Source: Methanocorpusculum sp.
Lineage (GTDB): Archaea > Halobacteriota > Methanomicrobia > Methanomicrobiales > Methanocorpusculaceae
NCBI RefSeq assembly: GCF_030655665.1
Contig: NZ_JAUSPQ010000004.1
Coordinates: 98,948-130,947, forward strand
Direction: 5' to 3'
DNA: 32,000 nucleotides
Both the position numbers and the translations under genes were made by a program. Shown in pieces: positions 2,525 through 30,703 of the stretch; position 1 is the first letter of the stretch; the number at the start of each line of letters is the position of its first letter. The notes under the pieces were generated by a model. It saw nothing but the letters and a program-made list of their open reading frames with translations. It had not been told where the DNA came from and did not search any database.

Positions 2525-3892
2525 ATGCAACCATCTCTCGACGTGAGAAACCCTGCCACGAATGAAGTCATCGGCACTATACATAACGCCACGCCCGATG
2601 ATGTAGACAATTTTGTGAATGCTGCCGCGGACATCCTGCCGTCCTGGGAAAAGACGGCGGCATCGAAGCGTGCCGTGATGTTTGTGAATGCCGCGGCCCT
2701 GATTAGGGCACGGGCTGACGATCTCGCCGTTCTGCTGACGACCGAGCAGGGAAAACCTCTGCGTGAGGCCAAGGACGAGATCCTCGGATCCGCTCATGTG
2801 TTCGAGTATTATGCCTCGGTCTCTGGGAGTATCCCGGGTGATGCCCGGAATCTTCCGGGATACGGGTATCTGAATGTTGTCAGAAAACCGCTCGGCATCT
2901 GTGCCGCGATCATTCCCTGGAACATGCCGGTGATGATCTTTGCCTGGAAGGTAGGGGCCGCACTCACCTGCGGGAATACCGTTCTCGCAAAACCCTCGAA
3001 GACCGCGTCCCTCACGATCCTGAAGATCGCGGAGGCCATGCATGATGGAGGTTTTCCAAAAAAAGTTCTCCAGGTCGTGACCGGATCCGGCGAAGGGACC
3101 GGTTCTGCGCTTGTCACCCACCCGGATATCCGGCACATCTCGTTTACGGGCTCGATTATGTCGGGAAAAGCAGTTTCACTTCTCGCGGCCCCGCATCTGA
3201 AAAAACTGACGCTGGAACTTGGCGGGAACGACAGTTTCATCGTGACGAAAACGGCCGATGTCGACGCCGCGGTAAAAGCAGCGGTCAGGAACCGGTTCTA
3301 CAACTGCGGGCAGGTCTGCACATCGGCAAAGCGGATACTGGTGGATGCATCGCTTGCCGATGAATTCGTCCGCAAAGCGGAGATCATGCTTTCCGGCTAC
3401 GTTGTGGGGAACGGTCTTGACAAAGTGAACATGGGCCCAATGAACAATCCGGGTCAGCTGGCAGAGATCGAGGCTTCGGTCGAGAGTATCCTCGCAAACG
3501 GCGATGCTCAGCTGGTTTACGGCGGGAAAAAACTGGACATGCCCGGAAACTTCTATGCTCCAACACTGCTGAAGAATGTGAGTCCGCTCGCGGTCTCCGA
3601 AGAGATCTTCGGGCCGGTGATGTCGGTGATCCCATTCAAGAACGCGGATGAAGCTCTGGATATTGCAAACTCAACGGTTTACGGTCTGGGCTCTTCGGTC
3701 TGGACATCGGATATCGCGACGGCCCAAAACTTCGCCGAGTCGCTGAGATGCGGGGTCGTCTGGGTGAACAAGCATCTGACCCTTCCGCCGGAGATGCCGT
3801 TTGGAGGGGTCGCAAGCTCCGGGTTCGGACGGGAAAACGGGCGGGACTTCGTGTATGAGTACACGGAGCCGAAGAGTATTTTGTTTGGGTGA
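2525..3892 (+). CDS. NAD(P)-dependent aldehyde dehydrogenase family protein
   Basis: 455-aa ORF with IPWNMP, FTGS, LELGGND and the catalytic-Cys segment FYNCGQVCTSAKR, plus PFGG near the C-terminus. These are the classical ALDH superfamily motifs. Confidence 0.9.
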   Translation: MQPSLDVRNPATNEVIGTIHNATPDDVDNFVNAAADILPSWEKTAASKRAVMFVNAAALIRARADDLAVLLTTEQGKPLREAKDEILGSAHVFEYYASVSGSIPGDARNLPGYGYLNVVRKPLGICAAIIPWNMPVMIFAWKVGAALTCGNTVLAKPSKTASLTILKIAEAMHDGGFPKKVLQVVTGSGEGTGSALVTHPDIRHISFTGSIMSGKAVSLLAAPHLKKLTLELGGNDSFIVTKTADVDAAVKAAVRNRFYNCGQVCTSAKRILVDASLADEFVRKAEIMLSGYVVGNGLDKVNMGPMNNPGQLAEIEASVESILANGDAQLVYGGKKLDMPGNFYAPTLLKNVSPLAVSEEIFGPVMSVIPFKNADEALDIANSTVYGLGSSVWTSDIATAQNFAESLRCGVVWVNKHLTLPPEMPFGGVASSGFGRENGRDFVYEYTEPKSILFG

Positions 3893-3925
3893 AGCGGGTT
3901 GGCGACGAAGTCGACGACCTCAGCG

Positions 3926-3947
3926 GAGCAAATCTTTGATTTGCGAC
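3926..3947. repeat. Dispersed hairpin element, copy 1 (gagcaaatctttgatttgcgac)
   Basis: 7-bp inverted repeat gcaaatc/gatttgc around 3 nt. It is the reverse complement of the copy at 24539..24559. Confidence 0.8.
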
Positions 3948-3987
3948 TGCGGGGAGGAGCCGACTGGCTCGCCCTCAGTTGAGGGTT

Positions 3988-4010
3988 TCCGCTTTCAGCG
4001 TCCACCCCGC
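3988..4010. repeat. 23-nt direct repeat, copy 1 (tccgctttcagcgtccaccccgc)
   Basis: Repeated at 4219..4241 with one mismatch. Preceded by the palindrome ccctcagttgaggg. Confidence 0.8.
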
Positions 4011-4101
4011 AAATCCGCGATAAGAAGGAAATGGAAATAGATCGTTGAGATTGTAAATCCGACTGGGTTTTTCCATCTCATGTTTTTCACCGGCGGGCAT
4101 C

Positions 4102-4140
4102 ACACGAAATTCACGAAAATAATACGAAAACACGAAAAAA
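4102..4140. repeat. Cluster of ACGAAA short repeats
   Basis: acgaaa occurs at 4104, 4113, 4124 and 4132. The block acgaaattcacgaaaa recurs at 4267..4282. Confidence 0.7.
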
Positions 4141-4185
4141 GAAAATCAGCTGGGTGTTGACCCCTATCTTACCCTCCCCCGTCCC

Positions 4186-4207
4186 TCGCAAGTCTATCGA
4201 CTTGCTC
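4186..4207. repeat. Dispersed hairpin element, variant copy (tcgcaagtctatcgacttgctc)
   Basis: Same tc-gcaaNtc...gaNttgc-tc frame as the other copies. The stem has a compensatory A>G / T>C change (gcaagtc/gacttgc). Confidence 0.7.
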
Positions 4208-4218
4208 GGCTGAGGTCG

Positions 4219-4241
4219 TCCGCTTTCAGCGTCCAACCCGC
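4219..4241. repeat. 23-nt direct repeat, copy 2 (tccgctttcagcgtccaacccgc)
   Basis: Matches 3988..4010 apart from one base. Confidence 0.8.
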
Positions 4242-4437
4242 CCCCACACCAAATCCACAAAAATCAACGAAATTCACGAAAAGGGGGGACAGGGGTGGGG
4301 GAATGGCAACTCTTCTTTTTTCAAAAGGAGGTGGTGTGAGCTCTTTTCTTATTCGGGGTGCGGGGAAGTGACTGCGGGCTGCCCCATAGGGGCGGCCTCA
4401 GCTGAGGCTGGGTGAGCCGATAGGCTCGCCCTCAGCG

Positions 4438-4458
4438 GAGCAAACCGAAGGTTTGCGA
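4438..4458. repeat. Dispersed hairpin element, variant copy (gagcaaaccgaaggtttgcga)
   Basis: Stem gcaaacc/ggtttgc has a compensatory T>C / A>G change relative to copy 1. It shares the upstream context cctcagcggagcaaa with copy 1. Confidence 0.75.
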
Positions 4459-4581
4459 TCCGGCGCGGAGCGTCCCGCGGTGGAGATATCTTTTTTTTTT
4501 GATTCGGAAGAGGTTTTTTTTCTCTTTTTTGCGGGAGTGTACGTCGGTTTCGTGTACAGGATTATTATGGAATCATAAGAT

Positions 4582-4772
4582 AAAACCAACCGCGAACCGC
4601 AAATCAGAGATTTGCTCTCCGACTCGCTTCGCTCGCTTGAATCGGCACGAATCTCGCCCTTCGGGCTCTCAGAATCGGATTTGCTATTCCTCACTCTCGC
4701 AATCCAGCTACGCTGTCTTGCTCCTCCCTCATCGGGAACGTTCGGGCAAATCCTGTCTCCGCCCCAGCGGCT
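4582..4772. repeat. Left arm of a long imperfect inverted repeat flanking the AT-rich cassette
   Basis: The reverse complement of 6804..6947 aligns by eye with this arm. Shared blocks are ccaaccgcgaa, cgcccttcgggc, gaatcggatttgctattcctcact, cttgctcctccctcatcggga, cgttcgggcaaatcctgtc and gcggct. The left arm has an extra ~43 nt (about 4597..4638). Confidence 0.85.
4597..4617. repeat. Dispersed hairpin element, copy inside the left arm (ccgcaaatcagagatttgctc)
   Basis: Stem gcaaatc/gatttgc. It lies in the segment that is present in the left arm but missing from the right arm. Confidence 0.75.
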
Positions 4773-6803
4773 CCCGTAAGAATAAGTTGGTACCCTTACA
4801 AATAATGGGGTGAATATTATACTTTTTTATCATTATATTTCAGAATATAGTCTAATTTATCTCTAGCCTTACTCTTCCAATTTTGATCTCTATATATCTT
4901 TTCAGATAATACATCATACTCACCTATAACCACATCACCTCGAGAATACTTCATTTTTAATTTATTGTAATTGGCAACTTCCTTCTCAGATAATTCATCA
5001 AAAAAGAAGAAATGTCCCATTTTATTACCAACCTTTGGTTTCCAGTCTTTCATTTTATTAACCAGATTTTTCATCTCTCCATCAAGATCAGTTGTCTTTG
5101 CTGAAACCTTGCATTCCCCAAAGATTACTGTGCCATCATTACGCACATAGGTTACATCAATTTCATGTTTATTTTGAGCAATATTCCAATCTAAGTTCTT
5201 TGAAGTGTCTGGACTGCGAGATAAATCATAATATGTCAGCAATTCCATTATCAATCCCCTTGCAGAATGAAGTACATCTTGTGTTGTTTCAAGCCTTTTT
5301 TGGATTTCACGAACTTTCTGATTTGCTCGCGCTATTTCTTTATCTTGGCGTTGGATGACTGAAACTGAATGTTCATTTTGGGTTGCAACATCAATTCCCA
5401 TAACATACTTTTCAAAAGTCTCTTTTTTAACCTCAAATGAAACAACATTAAGATATTGCATATATCGTTGGATATCATTATCAATCAACTGATGATAATA
5501 ACCGCCAGTTCCTGAATAATCAGTGTCGGTATCAAAAAATACAATCCAACCAGAGTAATCCATTGCAGAGCCATATCCTTCCATCAGAATTGCATAACTA
5601 TAATCATAACCCTTAAAACAGTGATGTTTGAAAATGCGAACCTGAACTTGCTCTGGGTTTTTCATTTGATTTTTTATTGTAACTGCTCCAATCAATAATG
5701 TCCTGAAAGCGATCATTCCAGAGAAAGGACCTGCTGAAGCATCGAGAAAACCCACATGATACCAAAGAAAAACTTTGTCAAGTTCTTCTTGTAATGATTT
5801 GTTAGGTATTTTATTTAGTTTATCAAAGATAGTTGAAAGCGACTCTTTTGAAAGTTTCGTATCATTTTTGAATGAATATAGATACCAGTCCTTTTCATGG
5901 TCATTATCAAGATCGAGAAAAATGTGGCCATATAAATGATCATAAATATATTGGATTTCATACCAATTTTCTGTATTATGTAAATATTTCAAACATTCTG
6001 TATCCAGTATATTTGGAAATAATTGATCTATTAAATATTCCAGAGAATAACAGTAACCACGGATTATCGTGTCCTTCGCCCCATAATCATCTGATTTGAT
6101 ATATTCCTCCCATTCAGGAGTTCCCTCTATTATTACATCCTCCTCTTTTGAGGAGTGTAATGGAGTAAATGCCTCAGCGTATGGAATCCCACTACCTCGA
6201 ATACATGAAAAATATAGCCATATAGTTCCTTCAATCAAATGTGAATATAATTCGTTTTTAGAATTAGGAAAATCAGAATAGGCATTTTCTTTGAGATGAT
6301 TAGCAAAGATATCCAGAACATTACGCTTCAAGTCGTTGAGTGGATGCCGAGATTTTGAAAAGTTTTTTGATGACTTGATCCTTTTAACATCGTAGCTCAG
6401 GATATAGAGTAAAGATGCTTTCTCACATGTGCGATCCATTTCTTCGGGAGGAACACCAGCGAACACTGCGCGATCAAAAGCAGGATCAGATGTTAATCCA
6501 AATGTTTCATCATAGCAAATTCCTTTAGCAAACCATCCCACAATTAAACCAATGCAGTATAAATAACCGGGTAAGAGTTCGTCTATATTGATATCTGGAT
6601 ATTTTTTATCTATCCACGAAGTAAATGATTTGGCATCAGAAAGAATATCATAACAACCAATTGCCCCATATATTGCATTAACTCCACGTGGACCCAATAC
6701 TAATTTTGAATCATTTTTTGTTGTAACCATATTATGTAATGTGTTGTTTAAGCAAGAGAAATAGATTTACGTTGATTGAGATTTTTTAAAAATGAAAAGT
6801 ATG
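4773..6803. other. AT-rich, foreign-looking single-gene cassette between the inverted arms
   Basis: Composition changes abruptly by eye from the GC-rich flanks to A/T-dominated sequence. It contains one long ORF plus an A/T-rich upstream region (tttttaaaaa at 6785..6794). Confidence 0.55.
4817..6730 (-). CDS. Orphan 637-aa protein with an unrecognised N-terminal ~480 aa, a short coiled-coil-like linker, and a C-terminal PD-(D/E)xK (restriction-endonuclease-like) core
   Basis: It is the only long ORF in the cassette and is AT-rich. The C-terminal pattern is LIMELL ... HEIDVTYVRNDGTVIFGECKV (D525, E539, K541; nt 5108..5167), which fits helix-E / strand-D / strand-ExK of the PD-(D/E)xK fold. 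I recognise no motif in the N-terminal part. Confidence 0.8.
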   Translation of the reverse strand: MVTTKNDSKLVLGPRGVNAIYGAIGCYDILSDAKSFTSWIDKKYPDINIDELLPGYLYCIGLIVGWFAKGICYDETFGLTSDPAFDRAVFAGVPPEEMDRTCEKASLLYILSYDVKRIKSSKNFSKSRHPLNDLKRNVLDIFANHLKENAYSDFPNSKNELYSHLIEGTIWLYFSCIRGSGIPYAEAFTPLHSSKEEDVIIEGTPEWEEYIKSDDYGAKDTIIRGYCYSLEYLIDQLFPNILDTECLKYLHNTENWYEIQYIYDHLYGHIFLDLDNDHEKDWYLYSFKNDTKLSKESLSTIFDKLNKIPNKSLQEELDKVFLWYHVGFLDASAGPFSGMIAFRTLLIGAVTIKNQMKNPEQVQVRIFKHHCFKGYDYSYAILMEGYGSAMDYSGWIVFFDTDTDYSGTGGYYHQLIDNDIQRYMQYLNVVSFEVKKETFEKYVMGIDVATQNEHSVSVIQRQDKEIARANQKVREIQKRLETTQDVLHSARGLIMELLTYYDLSRSPDTSKNLDWNIAQNKHEIDVTYVRNDGTVIFGECKVSAKTTDLDGEMKNLVNKMKDWKPKVGNKMGHFFFFDELSEKEVANYNKLKMKYSRGDVVIGEYDVLSEKIYRDQNWKSKARDKLDYILKYNDKKV

Positions 6804-6947
6804 AGCCGCCGGGGCGGCGACAGGATTTGCCCGAACGGTCCCGATGAGGGAGGAGCAAGACTGCAAAGCAGGCTTGCGATAGTGAGGAATAGCAAATCCG
6901 ATTCGCTCGCCCGAAGGGCGGATTCGCGCCGATTCGCGGTTGGTTTT
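6804..6947. repeat. Right arm of the long imperfect inverted repeat
   Basis: See the left arm. Weaker similarity continues outward (6948..~6999 vs ~4531..4581, e.g. tgtaggtcgatttcgtgtaagg vs tgtacgtcggtttcgtgtacagg). Confidence 0.85.
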
Positions 6948-7033
6948 TTCTCTTGCGTCTACGCTAATACCTTACACGAAATCGACCTACACCCCACGAG
7001 AGGCATTTTTTGGTTATCATCGCCCCACCCCCC

Positions 7034-7828
7034 TCACTCTTCCGGATCAATCCTTTCAATATTCTGAAGAATGCTCTGGGCTACAAACACCGAGACATTG
7101 TTAACGAGACCGAAACAGAGCATTTGACCATTATTTTCAAGAATTGCGATCGTTCCCTGGCGATCATGATAGAACTGCGCGAGGACTGGCAGCCTCTGTT
7201 TTTTGGAGGAAAACGGCAATTCCATCGTCGTCATAGGGATCCCGCGCTTGACCATATAACATTTGATCGGGGAGAACTTTGCCATTTTTTTATCTTTAAC
7301 GACGATGTAAACAGGTATCCGCTTTGCGGCTTCTTTGATATCGTCGGCATATCTCTGCAGGATCCGTTCATCGAAACAGAGGAGAAGAACTTCCTTGCAG
7401 GAACGTTTTAGTTCCATCCGGATCTGCGTGTCTATCGCAAGATCTGTCTGGAATTCATGAACGCCGACTATTTTCGTTCCCAGAGGGTAGCAGACATTCT
7501 GAAGTTCGGTGAGGCAGTTGGTCATGCGTTCCAGATTATTGAGAGTTTCTTTCACCAGACGAAGCGAGACTTTTTCCACCGGTTCGGCGGTGTAATAGAC
7601 CGGCTTCTCCCACGAACGAGTAATGAAGCCTTTCTGCTCGAGGATATTTAAGACATCATACACCCGGCCGCGGGGAACACCGCTGAACTCATGGATCTCG
7701 AACGCGGTAAGAATCCCGCGGCTGAAGATGGTCACATAGATCTTGGCTTCATACTCCCGCATTCCGCAGGAGATCAATTGCTCCTGGATCGACAGAAGGG
7801 GATCTTCAGGCATTCCCGCATCCGTCAT
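7034..7828 (-). CDS. TrmB-family transcriptional regulator
   Basis: The N-terminal wHTH GMREYEAKIYVTIFSRGILTAFEIHEFSGVPRGRVYDVLNILEQKGFI is typical of TrmB-like regulators. 264 aa, with an alternative start at M6. Confidence 0.8.
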   Translation of the reverse strand: MTDAGMPEDPLLSIQEQLISCGMREYEAKIYVTIFSRGILTAFEIHEFSGVPRGRVYDVLNILEQKGFITRSWEKPVYYTAEPVEKVSLRLVKETLNNLERMTNCLTELQNVCYPLGTKIVGVHEFQTDLAIDTQIRMELKRSCKEVLLLCFDERILQRYADDIKEAAKRIPVYIVVKDKKMAKFSPIKCYMVKRGIPMTTMELPFSSKKQRLPVLAQFYHDRQGTIAILENNGQMLCFGLVNNVSVFVAQSILQNIERIDPEE

Positions 7829-11216: not shown

Positions 11217-11259
11217 TGCCGGAAACCGATTCCCGAAAAAGGGTCATACAGTCCAGTTG

Positions 11260-11301
11260 AAAATCATTATATGCAAATATGTGCATATAGTAATATATGT
11301 C
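11260..11301 (+). promoter_or_regulatory. Promoter/operator block, copy A (upstream of hgcA), containing the palindrome TATATGCA-N6-TGCATATA
   Basis: 42 nt aaaatcattatatgcaaatatgtgcatata[g]taatatatgtc, identical to 13026..13067 except one base. The perfect 8-bp inverted repeat is at 11268..11275 / 11282..11289. The A/T-rich part can double as a TATA box. Confidence 0.6.
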
Positions 11302-11344
11302 ATCACTGTGTCTTTACGAAGCAAAAGATCCTGACAAAATGTGA
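11297..11344 (+). pseudogene. Remnant of the arsD-like gene (15 codons)
   Basis: atgtcatcactgtgtctttacgaagcaaaagatcctgacaaaatgtga aligns with the 5' end of 13063.. (MSSLCLYEAKDPDKM* vs MSSMVIFESKTPDKTT...). Confidence 0.6.
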
Positions 11345-11463
11345 TACAAACCCCTACATTTCCCGAAACGATCTTCAAAGCATTCGGCGATGTAAGCAGA
11401 CTTTGGATACTTTCCCTCCTGCAGGATCACGTAGCCTCACGATCCTCTGAAAAATGTGATTAA
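11341..11463 (+). pseudogene. Internally deleted arsR remnant (40 codons, HTH removed)
   Basis: 11365..11392 and 11414..11431 match arsR 13400..13427 and 13449..13466. 11438..11463 matches the arsR 3' end 13710..13735. About 243 nt of arsR (13467..13709) is replaced by 6 nt and the frame is kept: ..PETIFKAFGDVSRLWILSLLQDH|VASRSSEKCD*. Confidence 0.7.
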
Positions 11464-11465
11464 TC

Positions 11466-12539
11466 ATGACCGAAGAAAATAATACCTCAATATTTGAAAC
11501 GAAGAAGAAAACGATCACCGGGACGCAGACCTGCGGATGCGCTGACAACTGTTGCGAGACCCCTGCGATCCAGACGACCACGAGCAAGATCATCTTCGCT
11601 GACAGGCTTGACCATCTCCTTGCCCGGTTGGGCTGGAACCGGTTAAACCACAGCGTCGAACCCGGCCTGTACCGGCTCGGAGATCCGGATGCAGAATCCC
11701 CGGTTTTTGCATCGGCAAACTATACCCTGAGCTTTGATGCCCTCCGTTCCTCTCTTGCAGGGATCGATGCATGGATCCTTGTCCTGGATACGAAGGGGAT
11801 CAATGTCTGGTGTGCTGCCGGAAAAGGGACGTTTGGGACAGATGAACTCGTCCACAGAATAGAATCCACAGGCCTTGCCGGTATCGTCTCGCACCGTAAG
11901 ATCATCGTGCCCCAACTTGGAGCACCGGGTGTCTTCTGGCCGGAAGTGGTGCAGAGGACGAAGTTCATTGTCGAGTACGGTCCGGTCCGGGCAAACGACC
12001 TGCCGGAGTACCTGAAAACGCACACGGCGACCCCTGACATGCGGTGTGTCAAGTTTTCCTTGCGGGACCGGCTGGTACTGACGCCTGTTGAATTCATGCA
12101 CTTTGCGCTCCCGACCGTAGCAATATCAGCGGCCCTCTGGTTCCTTGCCGGGCCTTTTGCAGCACTTGCCGCGGTATCAGCGGTCCTTTCCGGGACCGTA
12201 CTCTTTCCACTGCTGCTGCCCGTTATCCCAACACGGGACTTTTCGACCAAAGGGATGATCCTTGGCGTGATCGTATCCCTTCCCTTCGCATATGTTTTCG
12301 GGACAACGCCAGGACTACCGATGTGGGCCGGGGCCCTTTCAGCGGTTGCAGCCCTTCTCCTCATCCCGGCGGTGATCGCGTATCTTGCCCTGAATTTCAC
12401 CGGCTGCTCAACGTTCACCTCACGGATGGGGGTCAAAAAGGAGATCTTCTCGTATGTCAAGGTCATGGCGGGAATGGCGGCAGTCGGCGTGATAAGCGGC
12501 ATTATTCTTGGCGTATCAAAGATCATGGGGGTGATCTGA
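11466..12539 (+). CDS. hgcA: HgcA, corrinoid protein of the mercury-methylation pair
   Basis: Diagnostic cap-helix motif NVWCAAGK at nt 11802..11825 in the context LVLDTKGINVWCAAGKGTFGTDEL. Upstream is PGLYRLGDPDAESPVFASANYTLSFDALR. The C-terminal half is hydrophobic (several TM helices). It is followed immediately by a 2x[4Fe-4S] ferredoxin. Confidence 0.88.
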   Translation: MTEENNTSIFETKKKTITGTQTCGCADNCCETPAIQTTTSKIIFADRLDHLLARLGWNRLNHSVEPGLYRLGDPDAESPVFASANYTLSFDALRSSLAGIDAWILVLDTKGINVWCAAGKGTFGTDELVHRIESTGLAGIVSHRKIIVPQLGAPGVFWPEVVQRTKFIVEYGPVRANDLPEYLKTHTATPDMRCVKFSLRDRLVLTPVEFMHFALPTVAISAALWFLAGPFAALAAVSAVLSGTVLFPLLLPVIPTRDFSTKGMILGVIVSLPFAYVFGTTPGLPMWAGALSAVAALLLIPAVIAYLALNFTGCSTFTSRMGVKKEIFSYVKVMAGMAAVGVISGIILGVSKIMGVI

Positions 12540-12889: not shown

Positions 12890-13025
12890 CTGGTATTTTG
12901 GAGCAGAGCCCTGCATTTGGGGGTACTCTCTGAAAAACCCGGATGAACACAGGGTCTGAACCCTATTTCAAAAATCTATTTTTTACCGTGAGCACCGTTT
13001 AGGGATCAGTCATACATTCTCTTTC

Positions 13026-13067
13026 AAAATCATTATATGCAAATATGTGCATATAATAATATATGTC
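13026..13067 (+). promoter_or_regulatory. Promoter/operator block, copy B (upstream of the ars operon), with the palindrome TATATGCA-N6-TGCATATA
   Basis: Same 42-nt block as 11260..11301, with the palindrome at 13034..13041 / 13048..13055. The A/T box is about 25-30 nt upstream of ATG 13063, which suggests a leaderless or very short-leader transcript with the operator overlapping the core promoter. Confidence 0.6.
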
Positions 13068-13395
13068 GTCGATGGTTATTTTTGAATCAAAAACCCCTGA
13101 CAAAACCACGTATGAGTATCTCCAGACAACTGAACTCATAGACAAACTCAATCCCTCAGGAATTGAGATTTCCCGTGCAATCTGGGATACAAACACCAAC
13201 GTCCGCCATCTTGTAGAGAAACATGGTGAAGAAATTCTTCCGGCAGTGGTGGTAAATGATTTCATCATGATCACCGGAAGATACCCGTCAAAAGAAGAAA
13301 TCAGACAGATTCTTCATGTACCTGACAAACTTATCGCAGAAGAATGCCAGGGATGCGGGTGTTGTTGTATCCAGGGATACGAATGCGATGAGTGA
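13063..13395 (+). CDS. ArsD-like (thioredoxin-fold arsenic metallochaperone family) protein with an atypical Cys pattern
   Basis: The segment VRHLVEKHGEEILPAVVVNDFIMITGRYPSKEEIRQIL resembles the ArsD core (..LP..L.DGE.V..GRYP...EL). The usual N-terminal CC/C motif is absent, and a C-terminal CQGCGCCCIQGYEC tail is present. Confidence 0.55.
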   Translation: MSSMVIFESKTPDKTTYEYLQTTELIDKLNPSGIEISRAIWDTNTNVRHLVEKHGEEILPAVVVNDFIMITGRYPSKEEIRQILHVPDKLIAEECQGCGCCCIQGYECDE

Positions 13396-13735
13396 TCCAG
13401 AAACGATCTTCAAAGCATTCGGCGATGCGACCCGACTTCGGATCCTTGCCCTCCTGCAGGATCACGAGTTATGCGTTTGCGAGATCGAAGCAGCACTCTC
13501 CCTCTCCCAGCCCAACGCATCACGCAGCCTGACGATCCTGAAAAACGCTGGCATCATCCAGAGCAGAAAACAGGCACAATGGACCTACTACAAAATCAGC
13601 GATGATTTTTCCGCCGTCTACCCTGACCTTTCCAGAGCCCTGGAAAACATCTGTGCCGGATTGCCGTCGACAAATGCAGACAAAGACGCCTTGAAAAAAT
13701 GCAGACAAACACGATCCTGCGAAAAATGTGATTAA
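13388..13735 (+). CDS. arsR: ArsR-family metalloregulator
   Basis: The start MSDPETIFKAFGDATRLRILALLQDHELCVCEIEAAL contains the ELCVCE metal-binding motif and an HTH. ATG 13388 overlaps the arsD-like stop (ATGAGTGA). The track ORF start at 13316 is an upstream extension. Confidence 0.88.
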   Translation: MSDPETIFKAFGDATRLRILALLQDHELCVCEIEAALSLSQPNASRSLTILKNAGIIQSRKQAQWTYYKISDDFSAVYPDLSRALENICAGLPSTNADKDALKKCRQTRSCEKCD

Positions 13736-13737
13736 TC

Positions 13738-13911
13738 ATGACCGAAGAAAAAAAGACCTCAATATTTGGAAAGATGAAGAAAGCGATCACCGGAGAAAAC
13801 TGCTCCTGCTGCTGTAATATCAAAATTGTGCCGGAAAAACCCGGATGTGATGACGAAGCCGGGTCGAAAGACCAATGCGGAGAAAACTGCAGCTGCCGTA
13901 AATCTGAATGA
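13738..13911 (+). CDS. 57-aa Cys-rich small protein (not in the ORF track)
   Basis: MTEEKKTSIFGKMKKAITGENCSCCCNIKIVPEKPGCDDEAGSKDQCGENCSCRKSE has 9 Cys. It starts 2 nt after the arsR stop, and its stop overlaps the permease start (ATGA at 13908..13911). The first ~19 codons are duplicated as the N-terminus of hgcA. Confidence 0.55.
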   Translation: MTEEKKTSIFGKMKKAITGENCSCCCNIKIVPEKPGCDDEAGSKDQCGENCSCRKSE

Positions 13912-18992: not shown

Positions 18993-20102
18993 TTATTGTG
19001 TATCGTACAGTTTCACGACATCACGCATTTGAGAAGCATATTTGTAGATATCCGGCGTTGACGTAATTGGATACTTCTCCTCTTTTCCATTGACAAATAT
19101 CGTGATGTAACGCTTTGTCTGACTATTGAAATGTAACCGGCAGATGGGTTTTCGGTTATTATCATCCAAAATAATGCCGCAGTATGTTTTTACATCCCTC
19201 ATTATAACCCGTGTGGGATCCACCGTATCACTCAGAATCGCACGAACGATTAAAAATCCCTCCCTTTCCTCATCAGTGGTGATAATGTCTGACTCTTCCT
19301 CGACATTTTCTTCAATTTCTTTTGGTTGTTCGGGTATTTCGGGGGACATCGCAGATTTGAGACGGTCATTGATGATATCATTGATGAACTGATGCAAGGC
19401 ACGCTTGGTTATTTCCGTGAAGTTATTTACTACATTTTTGGTGAGAAGCCCATCGTAAATCTGATGTGCAAAATATTTCACGAAATCCTGCGACGGATTT
19501 TCCATCTCCTGAGCAAGGATAAGCTTCATCGCTTTGATATATTTCATATTCATAGCAGACGGCAGGATCTTATCCACATTGAAGCTCTCCTTTCTGAATT
19601 GTTTTAAATTCTCCGCACTTTGCTCAGTGAGATTAAGCAGATCCACATCAAGGAAAGGTTTTGTGTCCATCTTGTTTAGAGCTTCGCAATCCGAATAAAA
19701 CAGATACTTTACCCCATTTGTCAGAATACCGATTTTTGCAGGACCCACAGAGAAATAGCGGAATAGTTGTGACATGTGAACCGTTGCCAGATCAGTACCA
19801 ACGGTTTTACATTCAATAAGAATGATGGGTTTTCCATCCTGCATAATAGCATAATCTATTTTTTCTCCTTTTTTGATTCCAACATCCGCAATGCACTCCG
19901 GACAAACCTCAGTCGGATCAAATACATTATACCCCAGAATCTGGAGGAAAGGCATTACCAATCCAGTTTTTGTTGCCTCCTCAGTTTTTATACCTTCAAC
20001 GATTTTTGGAATTCTGTTTGAAAAAACGCATAATTGTTCATTAAAATCCATATTACTCACATGATAGAAATACATCTCAACAATATATAGATGTTTGCTC
20101 AT
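18993..20102 (-). CDS. Stand-alone HsdR_N-like (type I restriction enzyme R N-terminal domain) PD-(D/E)xK protein
   Basis: AT-rich ORF. TEEATKTGLVMPFLQILGYNVFDPTEV...GEKIDYAIMQDGKPIILIECK (nt 19806..19856) is the HSDR_N-type nuclease core. The likely true start is MDFNEQL at 20054. No adjacent methylase or specificity genes. Confidence 0.65.
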   Translation of the reverse strand: MSKHLYIVEMYFYHVSNMDFNEQLCVFSNRIPKIVEGIKTEEATKTGLVMPFLQILGYNVFDPTEVCPECIADVGIKKGEKIDYAIMQDGKPIILIECKTVGTDLATVHMSQLFRYFSVGPAKIGILTNGVKYLFYSDCEALNKMDTKPFLDVDLLNLTEQSAENLKQFRKESFNVDKILPSAMNMKYIKAMKLILAQEMENPSQDFVKYFAHQIYDGLLTKNVVNNFTEITKRALHQFINDIINDRLKSAMSPEIPEQPKEIEENVEEESDIITTDEEREGFLIVRAILSDTVDPTRVIMRDVKTYCGIILDDNNRKPICRLHFNSQTKRYITIFVNGKEEKYPITSTPDIYKYASQMRDVVKLYDTQ

Positions 20103-24302: not shown

Positions 24303-24538
24303 TATCTATTACTATAGACGCGAGGGTTAATTAAGGGTAGCACATCTTAACCAGAGTGCTGAGAATACAGTGAAAAATCAGGGTGGGGACCGGGGTTGAT
24401 CCGGAGTATTCGGCCCTTGCGAAGATTCCCGGTCCTGGGGTGTTTACGGATATATTGTGTGAGGGGTAAGGCCTTCACGCGGGGTTGCGTGAAGGTAAAC
24501 ACTCGCTTCGGATGTAGTGAGAATAAATCCTCACTTGG

Positions 24539-24559
24539 TCGCAAATCAAAGATTTGCTC
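24539..24559. repeat. Dispersed hairpin element, remote copy (tcgcaaatcaaagatttgctc)
   Basis: Exact reverse complement of the core of 3926..3947. Located in the dnaJ-purH spacer. Confidence 0.8.
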
Positions 24560-24567
24560 CCCGTTTC

Positions 24568-28836: not shown

Positions 28837-29520
28837 TTACTCGAACAGATTGGCGAGATACTTTGCTCCCCAGAAGTAGAGGAACGGCATGATGAAGATC
28901 AGAATGACCCAGCCGAGGATCGGGATCATTAAGCAGATGAGGATGATCGCACCGAAGATGATCCAGAAGAGGATGAGCGAAAGGATGTACTTGAGCCAGC
29001 CTGCTTTGCTGATCATTCTGAATATTTCACCGAAGTGGAACGCAGCACCGAATCCGTTGCGGGCAAAGTTGACCACAGCCGGTTTTGCGAACAGAGCAAA
29101 CAGGAATGTGACGATGATACAGAGCAGAATCAGACCGAACATGAGGGCAAAACCCACACCTGTCGTGACCACGGGTACGACCGGAGACATCGCCGACATC
29201 GTTGACATTGGCGTCACGGTGGTAACTGAACTGATCGTGAACATGCCGACCGAGATAACAATCGTAAGAATGATCGGAATGATCATGTAGATGATACCAA
29301 TGATCAGTGCAAGAAGACCGTCAACAAAGGATTTTCCCATATTGTCGAGATTTGGTTCATCGCCGCGAAGGATCTTCACAAATGTTCCGTAGACTATCCA
29401 GTTGACGATCGGGATAAGGTTGAGGATCGAGAGGATCAGCCATGTTCCGATGTTGCCCCCGAGTTTCTCTTTTGCAAACCCAAAGGACGCGGTTAAATTT
29501 TCTCCAATTTCAATTGACAT
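28837..29520 (-). CDS. Polytopic membrane protein, DUF4013-like (name from recall)
   Basis: 227 aa, MSIEIGENLTASFGFAKEKLGGNIGTWLILSILNLIPIVNWIVYGTFVKILRGDEP... It is a close paralog of 29648..30304. Confidence 0.7.
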   Translation of the reverse strand: MSIEIGENLTASFGFAKEKLGGNIGTWLILSILNLIPIVNWIVYGTFVKILRGDEPNLDNMGKSFVDGLLALIIGIIYMIIPIILTIVISVGMFTISSVTTVTPMSTMSAMSPVVPVVTTGVGFALMFGLILLCIIVTFLFALFAKPAVVNFARNGFGAAFHFGEIFRMISKAGWLKYILSLILFWIIFGAIILICLMIPILGWVILIFIMPFLYFWGAKYLANLFE

Positions 29521-29647
29521 AGTATAACCATCTCTTTGTATTGAGATTTATATTATAAGGACGCAGGCATATATAAAACGATTTTGCCGCAAAGAAAAGA
29601 TCTGCAGAACCTAAAATGAAAATTAAAAAAAAAATGTTTTGGTATTC

Positions 29648-30304
29648 TTACGCAAACAGGTTTGTCCAGAACTTGCTGGCCCAGACGATGAGGAAGGGTA
29701 AAATGATGATCATAACAAGCCATCCAATGAACGGGATCATGCCAAGAAGACCAATGATACCAAAGATGACTGCAAGGATGATGATGCATAAGATGTACTT
29801 AAGCCAGCCGGCCTTTGCGACCATGCCGAAGATCTCACTGAAGTTGAATGCTGCGCCAAATCCTTTGCGGGCAAAGTTGACTATTGCCGGAGTCATGATG
29901 AGGGCAAACAGAATGAATATTATGATACAGAGAAGGATCAGTCCCATACTTGCTGCAAGGGCAGCAAACATCGCGGCTCCGCCCACTGATCCGGTAGGTG
30001 ACATGAAAACGCTGCCGATCATCAGACTGCCGACGCCAAGGAGGATAGCGATGATCGTCGGGATAAGCATGTAGATGAATGCGATGATGAATAAAAGAAG
30101 ACCATCAACAAAGGATTTCCCGATGTTTTCAACTTTCGGGTCCTCTCCGCGGTAAACCTTCAGGTATGTTCCCATTGCGATGAAGTTAACGATCGGGATG
30201 ATGGTCAGGATCATCAAAATGATCCAGTTACCAATACTTCCCACGAGTTTATCTTTTGCATAACCAAAAGATTCGGTTAAATTTTCTCCAATTCCAATTG
30301 ACAT
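29648..30304 (-). CDS. Polytopic membrane protein, DUF4013-like, paralog
   Basis: 218 aa, MSIGIGENLTESFGYAKDKLVGSIGNWIILMILTIIPIVNFIAMGTYLKVYRGEDP... It shares NFAR.GFGAAF.F.EIF.M..KAGWLKYIL with the neighbour. Confidence 0.7.
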   Translation of the reverse strand: MSIGIGENLTESFGYAKDKLVGSIGNWIILMILTIIPIVNFIAMGTYLKVYRGEDPKVENIGKSFVDGLLLFIIAFIYMLIPTIIAILLGVGSLMIGSVFMSPTGSVGGAAMFAALAASMGLILLCIIIFILFALIMTPAIVNFARKGFGAAFNFSEIFGMVAKAGWLKYILCIIILAVIFGIIGLLGMIPFIGWLVMIIILPFLIVWASKFWTNLFA

Positions 30305-30703
30305 AATAATACCATCTCCTTTTTTGAGATAGTTTATAGAAGAACGTTCTAGTATATAAAGTCACTTCTGAAGTATCTATTATGTTAAACAATATATCCG
30401 GATTTATCAACGGGAAACACAGAATTGACTCGAAACACACGGCATTATCGGGAAAATGCAACCTGACCGGAAAGGATTTGATGAAGAACGCATATCACGC
30501 GCTTTGGCAGGGTCGGATGATATGGATGGATGACGGGCATAATGCACGGTTTATGCCTACGTCCGCGGGGATCATCAGAAATGAGGGACCTGGAACACCT
30601 CGGCGGATAGCCAAAACAGGTAAAAACAGACTGGGTAAAAATAATGTTGAAAGGATGCAGGAGTCTCCCGCATCTATTTTATGAAATTATAAGGGATTAT
30701 CCC

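Follow-up and report, generated by a model that had tools for sequence, protein, structure and literature searches.

In Drosophila, long, modular and variable inverted repeats dominate the FB/FB-NOF elements, and a minority of copies have a coding loop. The arms of FB consist of tandem subrepeats, and its loop open reading frame (ORF) has been proposed as a transposase. In bacteria, a mobile insertion cassette (MIC) is defined as a passenger gene placed between inverted repeats of the transposon type, with no transposase (PMC3913671). The MITEs of prokaryotes (miniature inverted-repeat transposable elements) have been reviewed in PMC10969869. Here we analyse a stretch of 32,000 nucleotides from the archaeon Methanocorpusculum sp. 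(assembly GCF_030655665.1, contig NZ_JAUSPQ010000004.1, positions 98,948 to 130,947), called the window below, in which an AT-rich gene for a 637-aa protein, the cargo, is enclosed by long inverted arms. We regard it as reasonably probable that window positions ~4531-7026 are a copy of a foldback MITE-like element whose short core was replaced by a 2,029-nt foreign AT-rich segment with a nuclease gene, which would have been captured at the stem-loop junction and moved by recombination through the arms.

An earlier note, made by a model from the letters of the window, had described long imperfect inverted repeats around an AT-rich one-gene cassette, and this description was confirmed by a repeat search and by MAFFT. 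The repeat search found inverted arms at 4672-4773 and 6803-6904 (102 nt, 91% complementary, 2,029 nt between them) and an outer inverted pair at 4534-4599 and 6930-6995 (66 nt, 76%). The next-best inverted repeat across the 32-kb window is 40 nt long at 70%, so that the pairing of the arms stands far above chance. When 4500-4800 was aligned by MAFFT with the reverse complement of 6780-7030, the arms were co-linear from ~4531/6999 to ~4773/6803. In this alignment, the left arm alone carries a 45-nt insertion at 4594-4638 with the hairpin gcaaatcagagatttgc, which the note had seen as an extra ~43 nt. The GC content falls from ~0.52 outside to 0.31-0.36 between the arms (~33% for the 2,029-nt core), and the sole long ORF there is the 637-aa gene on the minus strand. 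The note had also held that the window is free of tRNA, transposase and integrase. Indeed, a tRNA scan of the window found none, and a scan of the 16 larger window ORFs, a subset of the total, detected neither a transposase nor an integrase domain. An Rfam search of the window gave no match. The gene content of the window is that of an ordinary chromosome, with arsenic-resistance genes, purH and dnaJ/dnaK. The parts of the element and its two flanking genes are given below; X denotes one of two types of outer end, and numbers with L are loci used for comparison, both of which are described further on.

2525..3892, plus strand: aldehyde dehydrogenase, the left flanking host gene, outside the element (Pfam Aldedh, E 2.4e-148).
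3893..4530, no strand given: spacer of small GC-rich hairpin modules, 640 nt (BLAST of cargo-free elements; repeat families D10, D12, D13, I5).
4531..4593, plus strand: left outer end, X-type, degenerate, lacking TAGGAsTTACGCGGTG (pairs with 6930-6995 at 76%).
4594..4638, plus strand: 45-nt hairpin module, in the left arm only (alignments).
4639..4773, plus strand: left arm proper, terminating in the 19-nt inner hairpin gtctccgccccagcggctc at 4755-4773 (repeat search, MAFFT).
4774..4788, plus strand: remnant of an older short core, ccgtaagaataagtt (alignment of L001, L076, L019).
4817..6730, minus strand: cargo gene, 637 aa, GC 0.337 (ORF and translation).
4841..5218, minus strand: C-terminal PD-(D/E)xK nuclease-like domain predicted in the cargo, residues ~505-630 (Foldseek, conserved motif).
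6731..6802, minus strand: upstream region of the cargo gene within the core, directly abutting the right arm (sequence).
6803..6947, minus strand: right arm, with its inner hairpin at 6803-6821 (arm motif at 6822, minus strand).
6948..7026, minus strand: right outer end, X-type, terminus deleted (alignment of the window, L003, L006, L128, L133).
7034..7828, minus strand: TrmB-family regulator, the right flanking host gene, outside the element (Pfam TrmB, E 5.5e-17; orthologues P0021-P0033).

The arms of the window belong to a dispersed repeat. A 24-nt arm motif, which stands at window position 4731 as ATCGGGANCGTTCGGGCAAATCCT, was scanned across one genome per species. At least 120 stretches were found, nearly all of them from ~10 Methanocorpusculum genomes (M. 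parvum XII and three closed chromosomes are among these), and arm repeats occur in all Methanocorpusculum genomes with matches, at no fewer than 5-22 arm-motif tiles per genome. The loci compared are 8-kb tiles; the counts are lower bounds, and some of the apparent single arms are merely cut at tile edges. In most loci, the motifs form a convergent pair whose spacing is 120-170 nt and most often 157 nt. When a 154-nt arm was used for a BLAST census, 87 paired arms and 53 unpaired matches were counted, many of the latter at contig or tile ends. Once anchored on the outer conserved block, the arms show two outer-end types, X (~105 nt) and Y (~75 nt), both of which begin with TAGGAsTTACGCGGTG. 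By the conserved termini TAGGAsTTACGCGGTG ... CACCGCGTAAsTCCTA, 35 elements of 456-1,309 bp were delimited. All except one are 456-769 bp long, and the outlier of 1,309 bp (L027) contains a GxxExxY ORF. A typical copy of 0.46-0.77 kb is almost wholly palindromic, with two modular arms of ~155-300 nt and a core of ~60-110 nt, and the fold of a cargo-free copy is one long hairpin (dG -169 vs -82 kcal/mol shuffled, z = -17). A single arm was considered as a structured RNA and rejected, its stability alone being unexceptional (z = -1.4). The arms are thus the two halves of a dispersed foldback MITE-like family, which is mostly cargo-free, specific to Methanocorpusculum and apparently undescribed: the literature searched on Methanocorpusculum repeats and MITEs and on GxxExxY held nothing relevant, and no Methanocorpusculum MITE was mentioned there.

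Foldback contigs were also seen in metagenome-assembled genomes (MAGs) labelled Methanomethylophilaceae, Bacilli, Acholeplasmataceae and Bacteroidales (L025, L028, L015, L057, L071, L102, L111 and others); these are probably binning errors and not transfers across phyla. Short-read assemblies often break within the palindromes (L004-L007, L009, L037 and many contig ends), leaving contigs of 200-2,600 bp with an arm at the end, so that Methanocorpusculum MAGs are systematically fragmented by this family.

The family also bears the marks of transposition. Flanking 6-mers are identical in 10 of 34 elements (for example TTAGAA, TTAAAA, TATAAA and TTTCAG) and agree at five or more of the six positions in 16 of them. 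A shifted-window control reached this looser agreement in 0.7% of cases, and shuffles between elements gave 4.5% identical and 16% at five or more positions, a baseline that is elevated because of an AT-rich target preference. The copy in L036 (845-1465, duplication TTAGAA) is absent at the orthologous position L133:4481-4763, the sole empty site found. From this evidence, the foldback family is, or was, mobile, and a 6-bp AT-rich target duplication implies that the element was placed by a transposase supplied in trans. In L060, at ~420-1231, two foldback copies stand end to end (…caccgcgtaactccta TTAGAA taggacttacgcggtg…), one inserted at the edge of the other. IS5-like and IS1634-like copies within the loci were considered as the partner and rejected, as they have other termini (the IS5-like end is GAGAATTTCTAACAACC). 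One such IS5-like element, with DUF772 and DDE_Tnp_1 and the same end, lies directly after the cargo stop codon at L003:7925-8014, where it replaces the 3' arm; it is multi-copy in L133, L103 and L070. In viral contigs, the arm motif had no match and the terminus had one, at chance level, which gives no sign of a viral vector.

The copy in the window no longer shares this mobility. Its outer ends were judged against intact X-type ends among 214 anchored arms, and the terminus TAGGAsTTACGCGGTG has no match anywhere in the window. The right outer end stops 8-10 nt from the trmB stop codon, and a 19-nt deletion common to the window and L003 took the terminus on the trmB side. With both termini lost, the copy can no longer be mobilised by transposition; the segment ~4531-7026 is an old, immobile fossil copy of the foldback element. 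The relative L003 carries the 45-nt hairpin module in the arm opposite to that of the window.

The cores, by comparison, vary from copy to copy. In every arm, the cargo or core starts directly after a 19-nt arm-end hairpin, GTCG[G/C]CGCCCCAGCG[C/G]CTC. Most copies hold one of several non-coding AT-rich cores, with an inter-motif interval of 95-146 nt that includes 19 nt of arm per side. The ~2,029-nt core with the 637-aa gene is shared by five loci including the window. In three other copies, 533-536 nt separate the two arm motifs; a fourth copy, the 1,309-bp element of L027, is partly masked. The core ORFs of L027 and L063 encode ~145-aa PDDEXK_3/GxxExxY proteins (PF13366, E 1e-38; TIGR04256), which score 131-133 bits where the curated cut-offs are 22 and 35. 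The L063 core can be aligned with those of L085 and L099, and an internally deleted version is present in L064. One core contains a DUF2971 gene and a secondary insertion sequence (IS) fragment; the only DDE ORF seen within a core, in L067, is such a fragment. In L014 and L016, adjacent tiles of one contig, convergent arms enclose ~4 kb. Further genes are found at inner arm ends: an AbiLi/AriA-like ATPase in L057 (5e-78), a type IV DinG-like helicase (1e-89) and a CARF protein (4e-63) in L050, and elsewhere SngA/TerB_N (L123), HATPase_c_3 (L111), PLD-SNF2 (L102) and a DNA methylase (L080). Where cores can be oriented, one polarity is kept in nine of 11 elements. A metagenome scan with the conserved 5' leader for further copies of the cassette gave only two contigs that were already known. 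Taken together, the core was shown to be the exchangeable part of the foldback element. Single arms in L074 and L068 adjoin type I-C-looking cas genes (Cas8c- and Cas7-like N-termini), as judged by eye only.

Orthologous sites show what such an exchange leaves behind. At the FdhD/FMN-reductase site, L001/L002 hold the cassette with a 2,028-nt core between arms of 154 nt (97% complementary), and M. parvum (L076) holds a cargo-free copy with a 96-nt core. On the FMN-reductase side, the flank, terminus and arm of L001 and L076 align throughout; the first ~13 core nt are homologous (ccaataagaatta vs ccgatagtaattt), and then the two diverge. In the window, 13-15 nt of the older core likewise persist on one side, and the short non-coding cores of cargo-free copies share homology with this remnant, ccgtaagaataagtt, over their first ~13 nt. 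Since the first ~13 core nt are common to both forms, the gene replaced most of a short core, and the short cores did not arise from the cassette by deletion. Also constant is the upstream segment ctcaatcaacgtaNatctatttc, which is kept in every cassette copy. An A/T box (tttttaaaaaa) stands ~45-55 nt ahead of the cargo ATG, and this region of the core is, from its sequence, a putative promoter.

At the trmB site, the junction on the trmB side is identical in the window, L003, L006 and L128, and the insertion is orthologous in at least five lineages. After the arm, the window, L003 and L006 carry the 637-aa gene, with the same orientation relative to trmB in all three, and L128/L129 carry a gene for a 1,076-aa AAA NTPase without a second arm. 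A 335-aa gene with no arm is found in L130-L132. In L133, 2.4 kb were deleted between direct GATTCG repeats (window 4503 and 6930); L133 was thus rejected as a clean pre-insertion site at trmB/aldehyde dehydrogenase, being a microhomology deletion instead. Orthologues of the aldehyde dehydrogenase are present in L050, L013, L128 and L133. These comparisons bear on several proposals of the earlier note. It had seen a foreign cargo gene either in a non-autonomous foldback element or in a pre-existing palindrome, and both halves hold, as the family is dispersed and 13-15 nt of an older core remain. Arms were found both as solo elements and around other cargo, two situations that the note had named side by side. 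As for the aldehyde-dehydrogenase/trmB interval, where it had looked to relatives for an empty site, the relatives do differ, but a clean empty site with a target duplication was not among them: L133 is the deletion just described, and the termini of the window copy are eroded.

The boundary at which cores are exchanged has a property of its own. Of 169 arms, 81 have C-G at pair 5-16 of the inner hairpin, another 81 have G-C, and 7 have a mismatch there; 40 of 49 elements have one arm with each form. With opposite forms in one element, the arms are mutually non-complementary at this point while each stem is intact, and rarer variants of the hairpin also stay paired via double changes. This compensatory variation and the exactness of the cargo junctions are a hint that each core boundary might carry a site recognised in single-stranded form. 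The recurrence of nuclease genes as cargo might also reflect a homing-like or cassette-exchange mechanism, though we think this doubtful. A more elaborate form of the idea, to which we give hardly more credence, is that the foldback is a dedicated cassette platform, in which the 19-nt hairpins would be single-strand recognition sites for cutting out and swapping cores, the two hairpins of an element would be kept non-complementary on purpose while compensatory changes preserve each stem, and the GxxExxY and 637-aa proteins would be structure-specific nucleases that drive their own spread into palindrome loops. If true, this platform would be a new type of homing, with a dispersed repeat as the landing pad.

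The cargo protein itself has no Pfam, NCBIfam, PADLOC or PDB sequence match. In its AlphaFold2 model (pLDDT 82, pTM 0.64), a helical N-terminal part is followed by a beta-rich middle, a long helix and a C-terminal alpha/beta domain. The top Foldseek matches in the PDB are all PD-(D/E)xK proteins, namely Card1, SfsA, NucS/EndoMS, R.BspD6I and Can2, and are weak (E 0.007-0.1 over 117-145 columns). The corresponding motif is E496, D525 and E539-C540-K541; among 17 homologues, D525 is kept in 16, E539 in 15, K541 in 13 and E496 in 16. By modelled fold and motif, the C-terminus would belong to the PD-(D/E)xK nuclease superfamily, with catalysis predicted. The ~500 N-terminal residues (helical and beta-rich, with invariant H369 and W395 and a DYSGW motif) match nothing known, and no CARF domain was detected in the cargo. 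In a profile search, the cargo family comprises 518 clusters at 50% identity, 326 of them below 1e-30, nearly all of 600-660 aa and of one architecture. A few members weakly match NERD, Card1_endonuc and CARF_PDDEXK, and one matches the PADLOC candidate PDC-M36A at 1.8e-20. In four Methanocorpusculum variants of the cargo, the ORF is intact, and the ratio of nonsynonymous to synonymous divergence (dN/dS) is 0.32-0.47. For the same genome pairs, the dS of the flanking host genes (0.53-0.59) is about twice the 0.20-0.28 of the cargo, a difference that suggests exchange between lineages after their split. The cargo is probably a fast-evolving passenger and not a transposase; judging from the model, it is most likely a stand-alone defence-type nuclease.

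How the gene came to stand between these arms can be explained in more than one way. According to our preferred reading, foreign AT-rich DNA would have been captured at the fragile stem-loop junction of the palindrome. Long palindromes are cut at hairpin loops by Mre11-Rad50/SbcCD-type nucleases, and such cutting would give breakpoints as observed and also one-armed derivatives. The loaded core would then move among copies and strains by homologous recombination through the ~200-nt arms, by which an identical cassette could come to lie in two pre-existing copies without a transposase. The main rival keeps transposition for this second step: the whole 2.5-kb loaded element would be a mobile insertion cassette that was moved as a unit in trans and so reached its two sites. 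The family does make target duplications and is polymorphic, the core boundaries are identical at the two sites, and MICs of such design are known in bacteria (PMC3913671). Nevertheless, the FdhD/FMN-reductase site is already occupied in M. parvum with the same flank junction, so that a fresh insertion would have to strike the same nucleotide. Also, a target duplication was never found together with two intact termini in a copy that bears cargo: in L027 both termini are present but the flanks are ttccta and taaata, and the trmB-side terminus is gone in the window and in L003. We therefore think that movement of the loaded element as a unit is unlikely, although it is the strongest of the competing explanations.

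Several points weigh against our preferred reading of capture followed by recombination through the arms. In the loci examined (8-kb tiles), no transposase was found whose termini match those of the family, although its absence is unproven; what speaks for the term MITE is therefore the structure, the copy number, the target duplications and a single empty site. The FdhD side of L001 and L076 differs in outer-end type (X vs Y), so the history of that side is more complex than a simple swap of cores. Recombination through the arms is inferred solely from the distribution of cores, and the lower dS of the cargo could be explained in part by its extreme AT bias. Capture at a broken palindrome centre by itself explains neither the exact start of the cargo after the 19-nt hairpin nor the compensatory variation of that hairpin. 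The defence role of the cargo comes from fold and neighbourhoods only, and no PADLOC model matches the cargo directly.

Another reading is a homing nuclease: the core-encoded PD-(D/E)xK proteins, both the 637-aa one and the ~145-aa GxxExxY ones, would cleave cargo-free copies at their apex or inner hairpins, and repair from a loaded copy, with the arms as homology, would bring the gene into new palindromes. In favour of such homing, two unrelated core cargos are nucleases of this superfamily, every cargo junction lies exactly at the compensatorily varying inner hairpin, the same cassette occurs in two different copies, and the cargo dS is below the host dS. Yet the same slot also takes cargos that are not nucleases (the 1,076-aa NTPase, DUF2971 and the AbiLi-like ATPase), and the 637-aa family is widespread (518 clusters), with three distant members examined lacking such repeats. 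The cassette is rare as well, with two contexts and no extra metagenome matches against abundant cargo-free copies, which is unlike an efficient homing element, and homing is in our view improbable. Much less probable still is an autonomous transposon, in which the 637-aa protein would be a novel transposase and the short copies internal deletion derivatives. The gene does lie between the inverted repeats of the family, as a transposase gene would, and has a nuclease domain and no annotated function. Its GC of 0.34 is nonetheless far from that of the GC-rich arms and of the window (~0.5), and the short cores match the cassette over ~13 nt on one side, so that they are not deletion derivatives. 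Alternative genes fill the same slot, the terminal repeats are absent from the three distant homologues examined, and the gene is present in few genomes, as against repeats in all matched Methanocorpusculum genomes. Furthermore, we know of no PD-(D/E)xK nuclease that on its own performs strand transfer with 6-bp duplications, which is against reading the protein as a transposase; TnsA needs TnsB.

An invertible or cruciform switch, in which the arms would serve to invert the cassette or to extrude a regulatory cruciform, was rejected as very improbable. Arms of ~200 nt at 91% could recombine or extrude, and the cargo-free copy folds very stably. Against this stands the orientation relative to trmB, which is the same in the window, L003 and L006; core polarity is constant in nine of 11 orientable copies, and the inversion that the earlier note had envisaged is thus not borne out. 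Flipping would not switch expression, as the promoter-like region is inside the cassette, and the arms are a dispersed repeat rather than specific to this locus. The least probable explanation of all, to which we give almost no weight, is an assembly or binning artefact, namely a chimeric contig of a MAG in which host DNA and a foreign AT-rich fragment would be joined at the repeats. Short-read assemblies do often break at palindromes, and many contigs end in an arm (L004-L007, L003), but both junctions recur in independent sources (an NCBI MAG, a bioreactor metagenome, MAG 5L_17, JGI and Logan) and the ORF is intact in four diverged variants.

Other repeats and foreign-looking genes were observed around the element. 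The spacer that follows the aldehyde dehydrogenase at 3893-4530 looks like layered debris from earlier repeat insertions. A spacer module at 3885-3947 is also an optional part of the arms in other foldback copies, and copies of a 'Z' module (~4345-4485) lie immediately inside many single arms beside AT-rich islands. The 23-nt hairpin GGAGCAAATCTTTGATTTGCGAC is found at 3925-3947 and 24538-24560, 100% identical and in inverted relative orientation; the second copy is free-standing upstream of dnaJ, and the same module is used in foldback arms. A second AT-rich gene lies at 18993-20102 on the minus strand (GC ~0.40 vs ~0.50 background). Its 369-aa product has an HSDR_N domain (type I restriction R, N-terminal nuclease-like; E 4.7e-15), and no foldback arms stand alongside it. 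Diverged local duplications of 72-90% identity were seen at 11243-11521 vs 13009-13793, within the arsenic-resistance region, and at 28951-29537 vs 29759-30321, spanning two tandem ~220-aa ORFs.

The family described here is an apparently undescribed family of archaeal transposable elements, whose members, found across Methanocorpusculum, are MITEs of long, modular and nearly perfect palindromic form. Their loop can serve as a slot for foreign, often defence-related genes that are exchanged between strains, which offers a concrete route by which genes flow in a genus of methanogens for which few mobile elements are known. GxxExxY nucleases and an uncharacterised nuclease family of 518 clusters are hereby placed in a mobile context, and attention is drawn to the palindromes as a reason why assemblies break. 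Should an active mechanism lie behind the precise junction at the inner hairpin, it would be a new way to move genes.

Compared with known systems, several kinds of element share a part of this design. Integron cassettes likewise are self-contained or promoter-poor single genes with an imperfect palindromic hairpin site, and their cargo is exchangeable. Unlike the situation at attC, the gene here is inside the hairpin loop, there is no IntI/attI and no array, and the arms are unlike attC, being part of a dispersed repeat flanked by target-site duplications. With no integrase domain in the ORFs scanned and the gene inside a palindrome, an integron cassette was rejected. So were an insertion sequence or composite transposon, as the cargo has no transposase match, its fold is PD-(D/E)xK only and no transposase was found in the 16 ORFs scanned, and a casposon, since there is a single gene and no Cas1 or PolB domain. 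As in defence islands and hotspots, the trmB/aldehyde-dehydrogenase interval varies by strain, with the 637-aa nuclease, the 1,076-aa NTPase, the DinG-like helicase with the CARF protein, or the 335-aa protein; unlike in such hotspots, the boundary here is a defined repeat hairpin and not a tRNA or integrase att site, and no integrase is adjacent. The cargo itself may be compared with Card1/Can2-type and restriction-type PD-(D/E)xK nucleases, which its modelled C-terminus resembles in fold over ~120-145 residues and in the E...D...ExK motif.

The MITEs of prokaryotes come nearer. Like the Sulfolobus SM and Correia/ERIC-type elements, the foldback family consists of small non-coding elements that lie in many copies between genes; they have terminal inverted repeats and strong structure, duplicate their target and are polymorphic for presence or absence. 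In keeping with the usual definition of MITEs, its copies are dispersed and polymorphic and have no internal transposase gene. A cognate autonomous IS with matching ends, which would also be expected, was not seen in the loci searched (8-kb tiles). Unlike other prokaryotic MITEs, the family is almost entirely palindromic at about 0.5-0.8 kb, has optional hairpin modules in its arms and includes several short-core families, and some copies carry genes, from 0.45 to >4 kb. The window copy in turn resembles the MICs, such as MIC231 of Bacillus cereus and the qnrD 'mic' of Proteeae, in being a passenger bracketed by transposon inverted repeats without a transposase, from a repeat family that duplicates its target and is presumed to be mobilised in trans. 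MICs have as repeats the short ends (about 24-50 bp) of an IS, and this IS partner is known, whereas the repeats here are whole halves of a palindromic MITE, 155-300 nt long and modular, for which no partner IS was found in the loci searched. Moreover, the host is an archaeon, and the loaded copy studied is without intact termini or a target duplication; no loaded copy with both was found, and the termini in the window are eroded. The slot here is also a precise stem-loop junction that takes many different cargos. The Foldback elements of Drosophila belong to another domain of life and have no sequence relationship with the family, and their loop ORF may differ in kind from the genes in the loops here, which look like passengers. 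Thus, the closest known kinds are the bacterial mobile insertion cassettes and the prokaryotic MITEs, and the Drosophila foldback elements may be likened to the family by analogy only.

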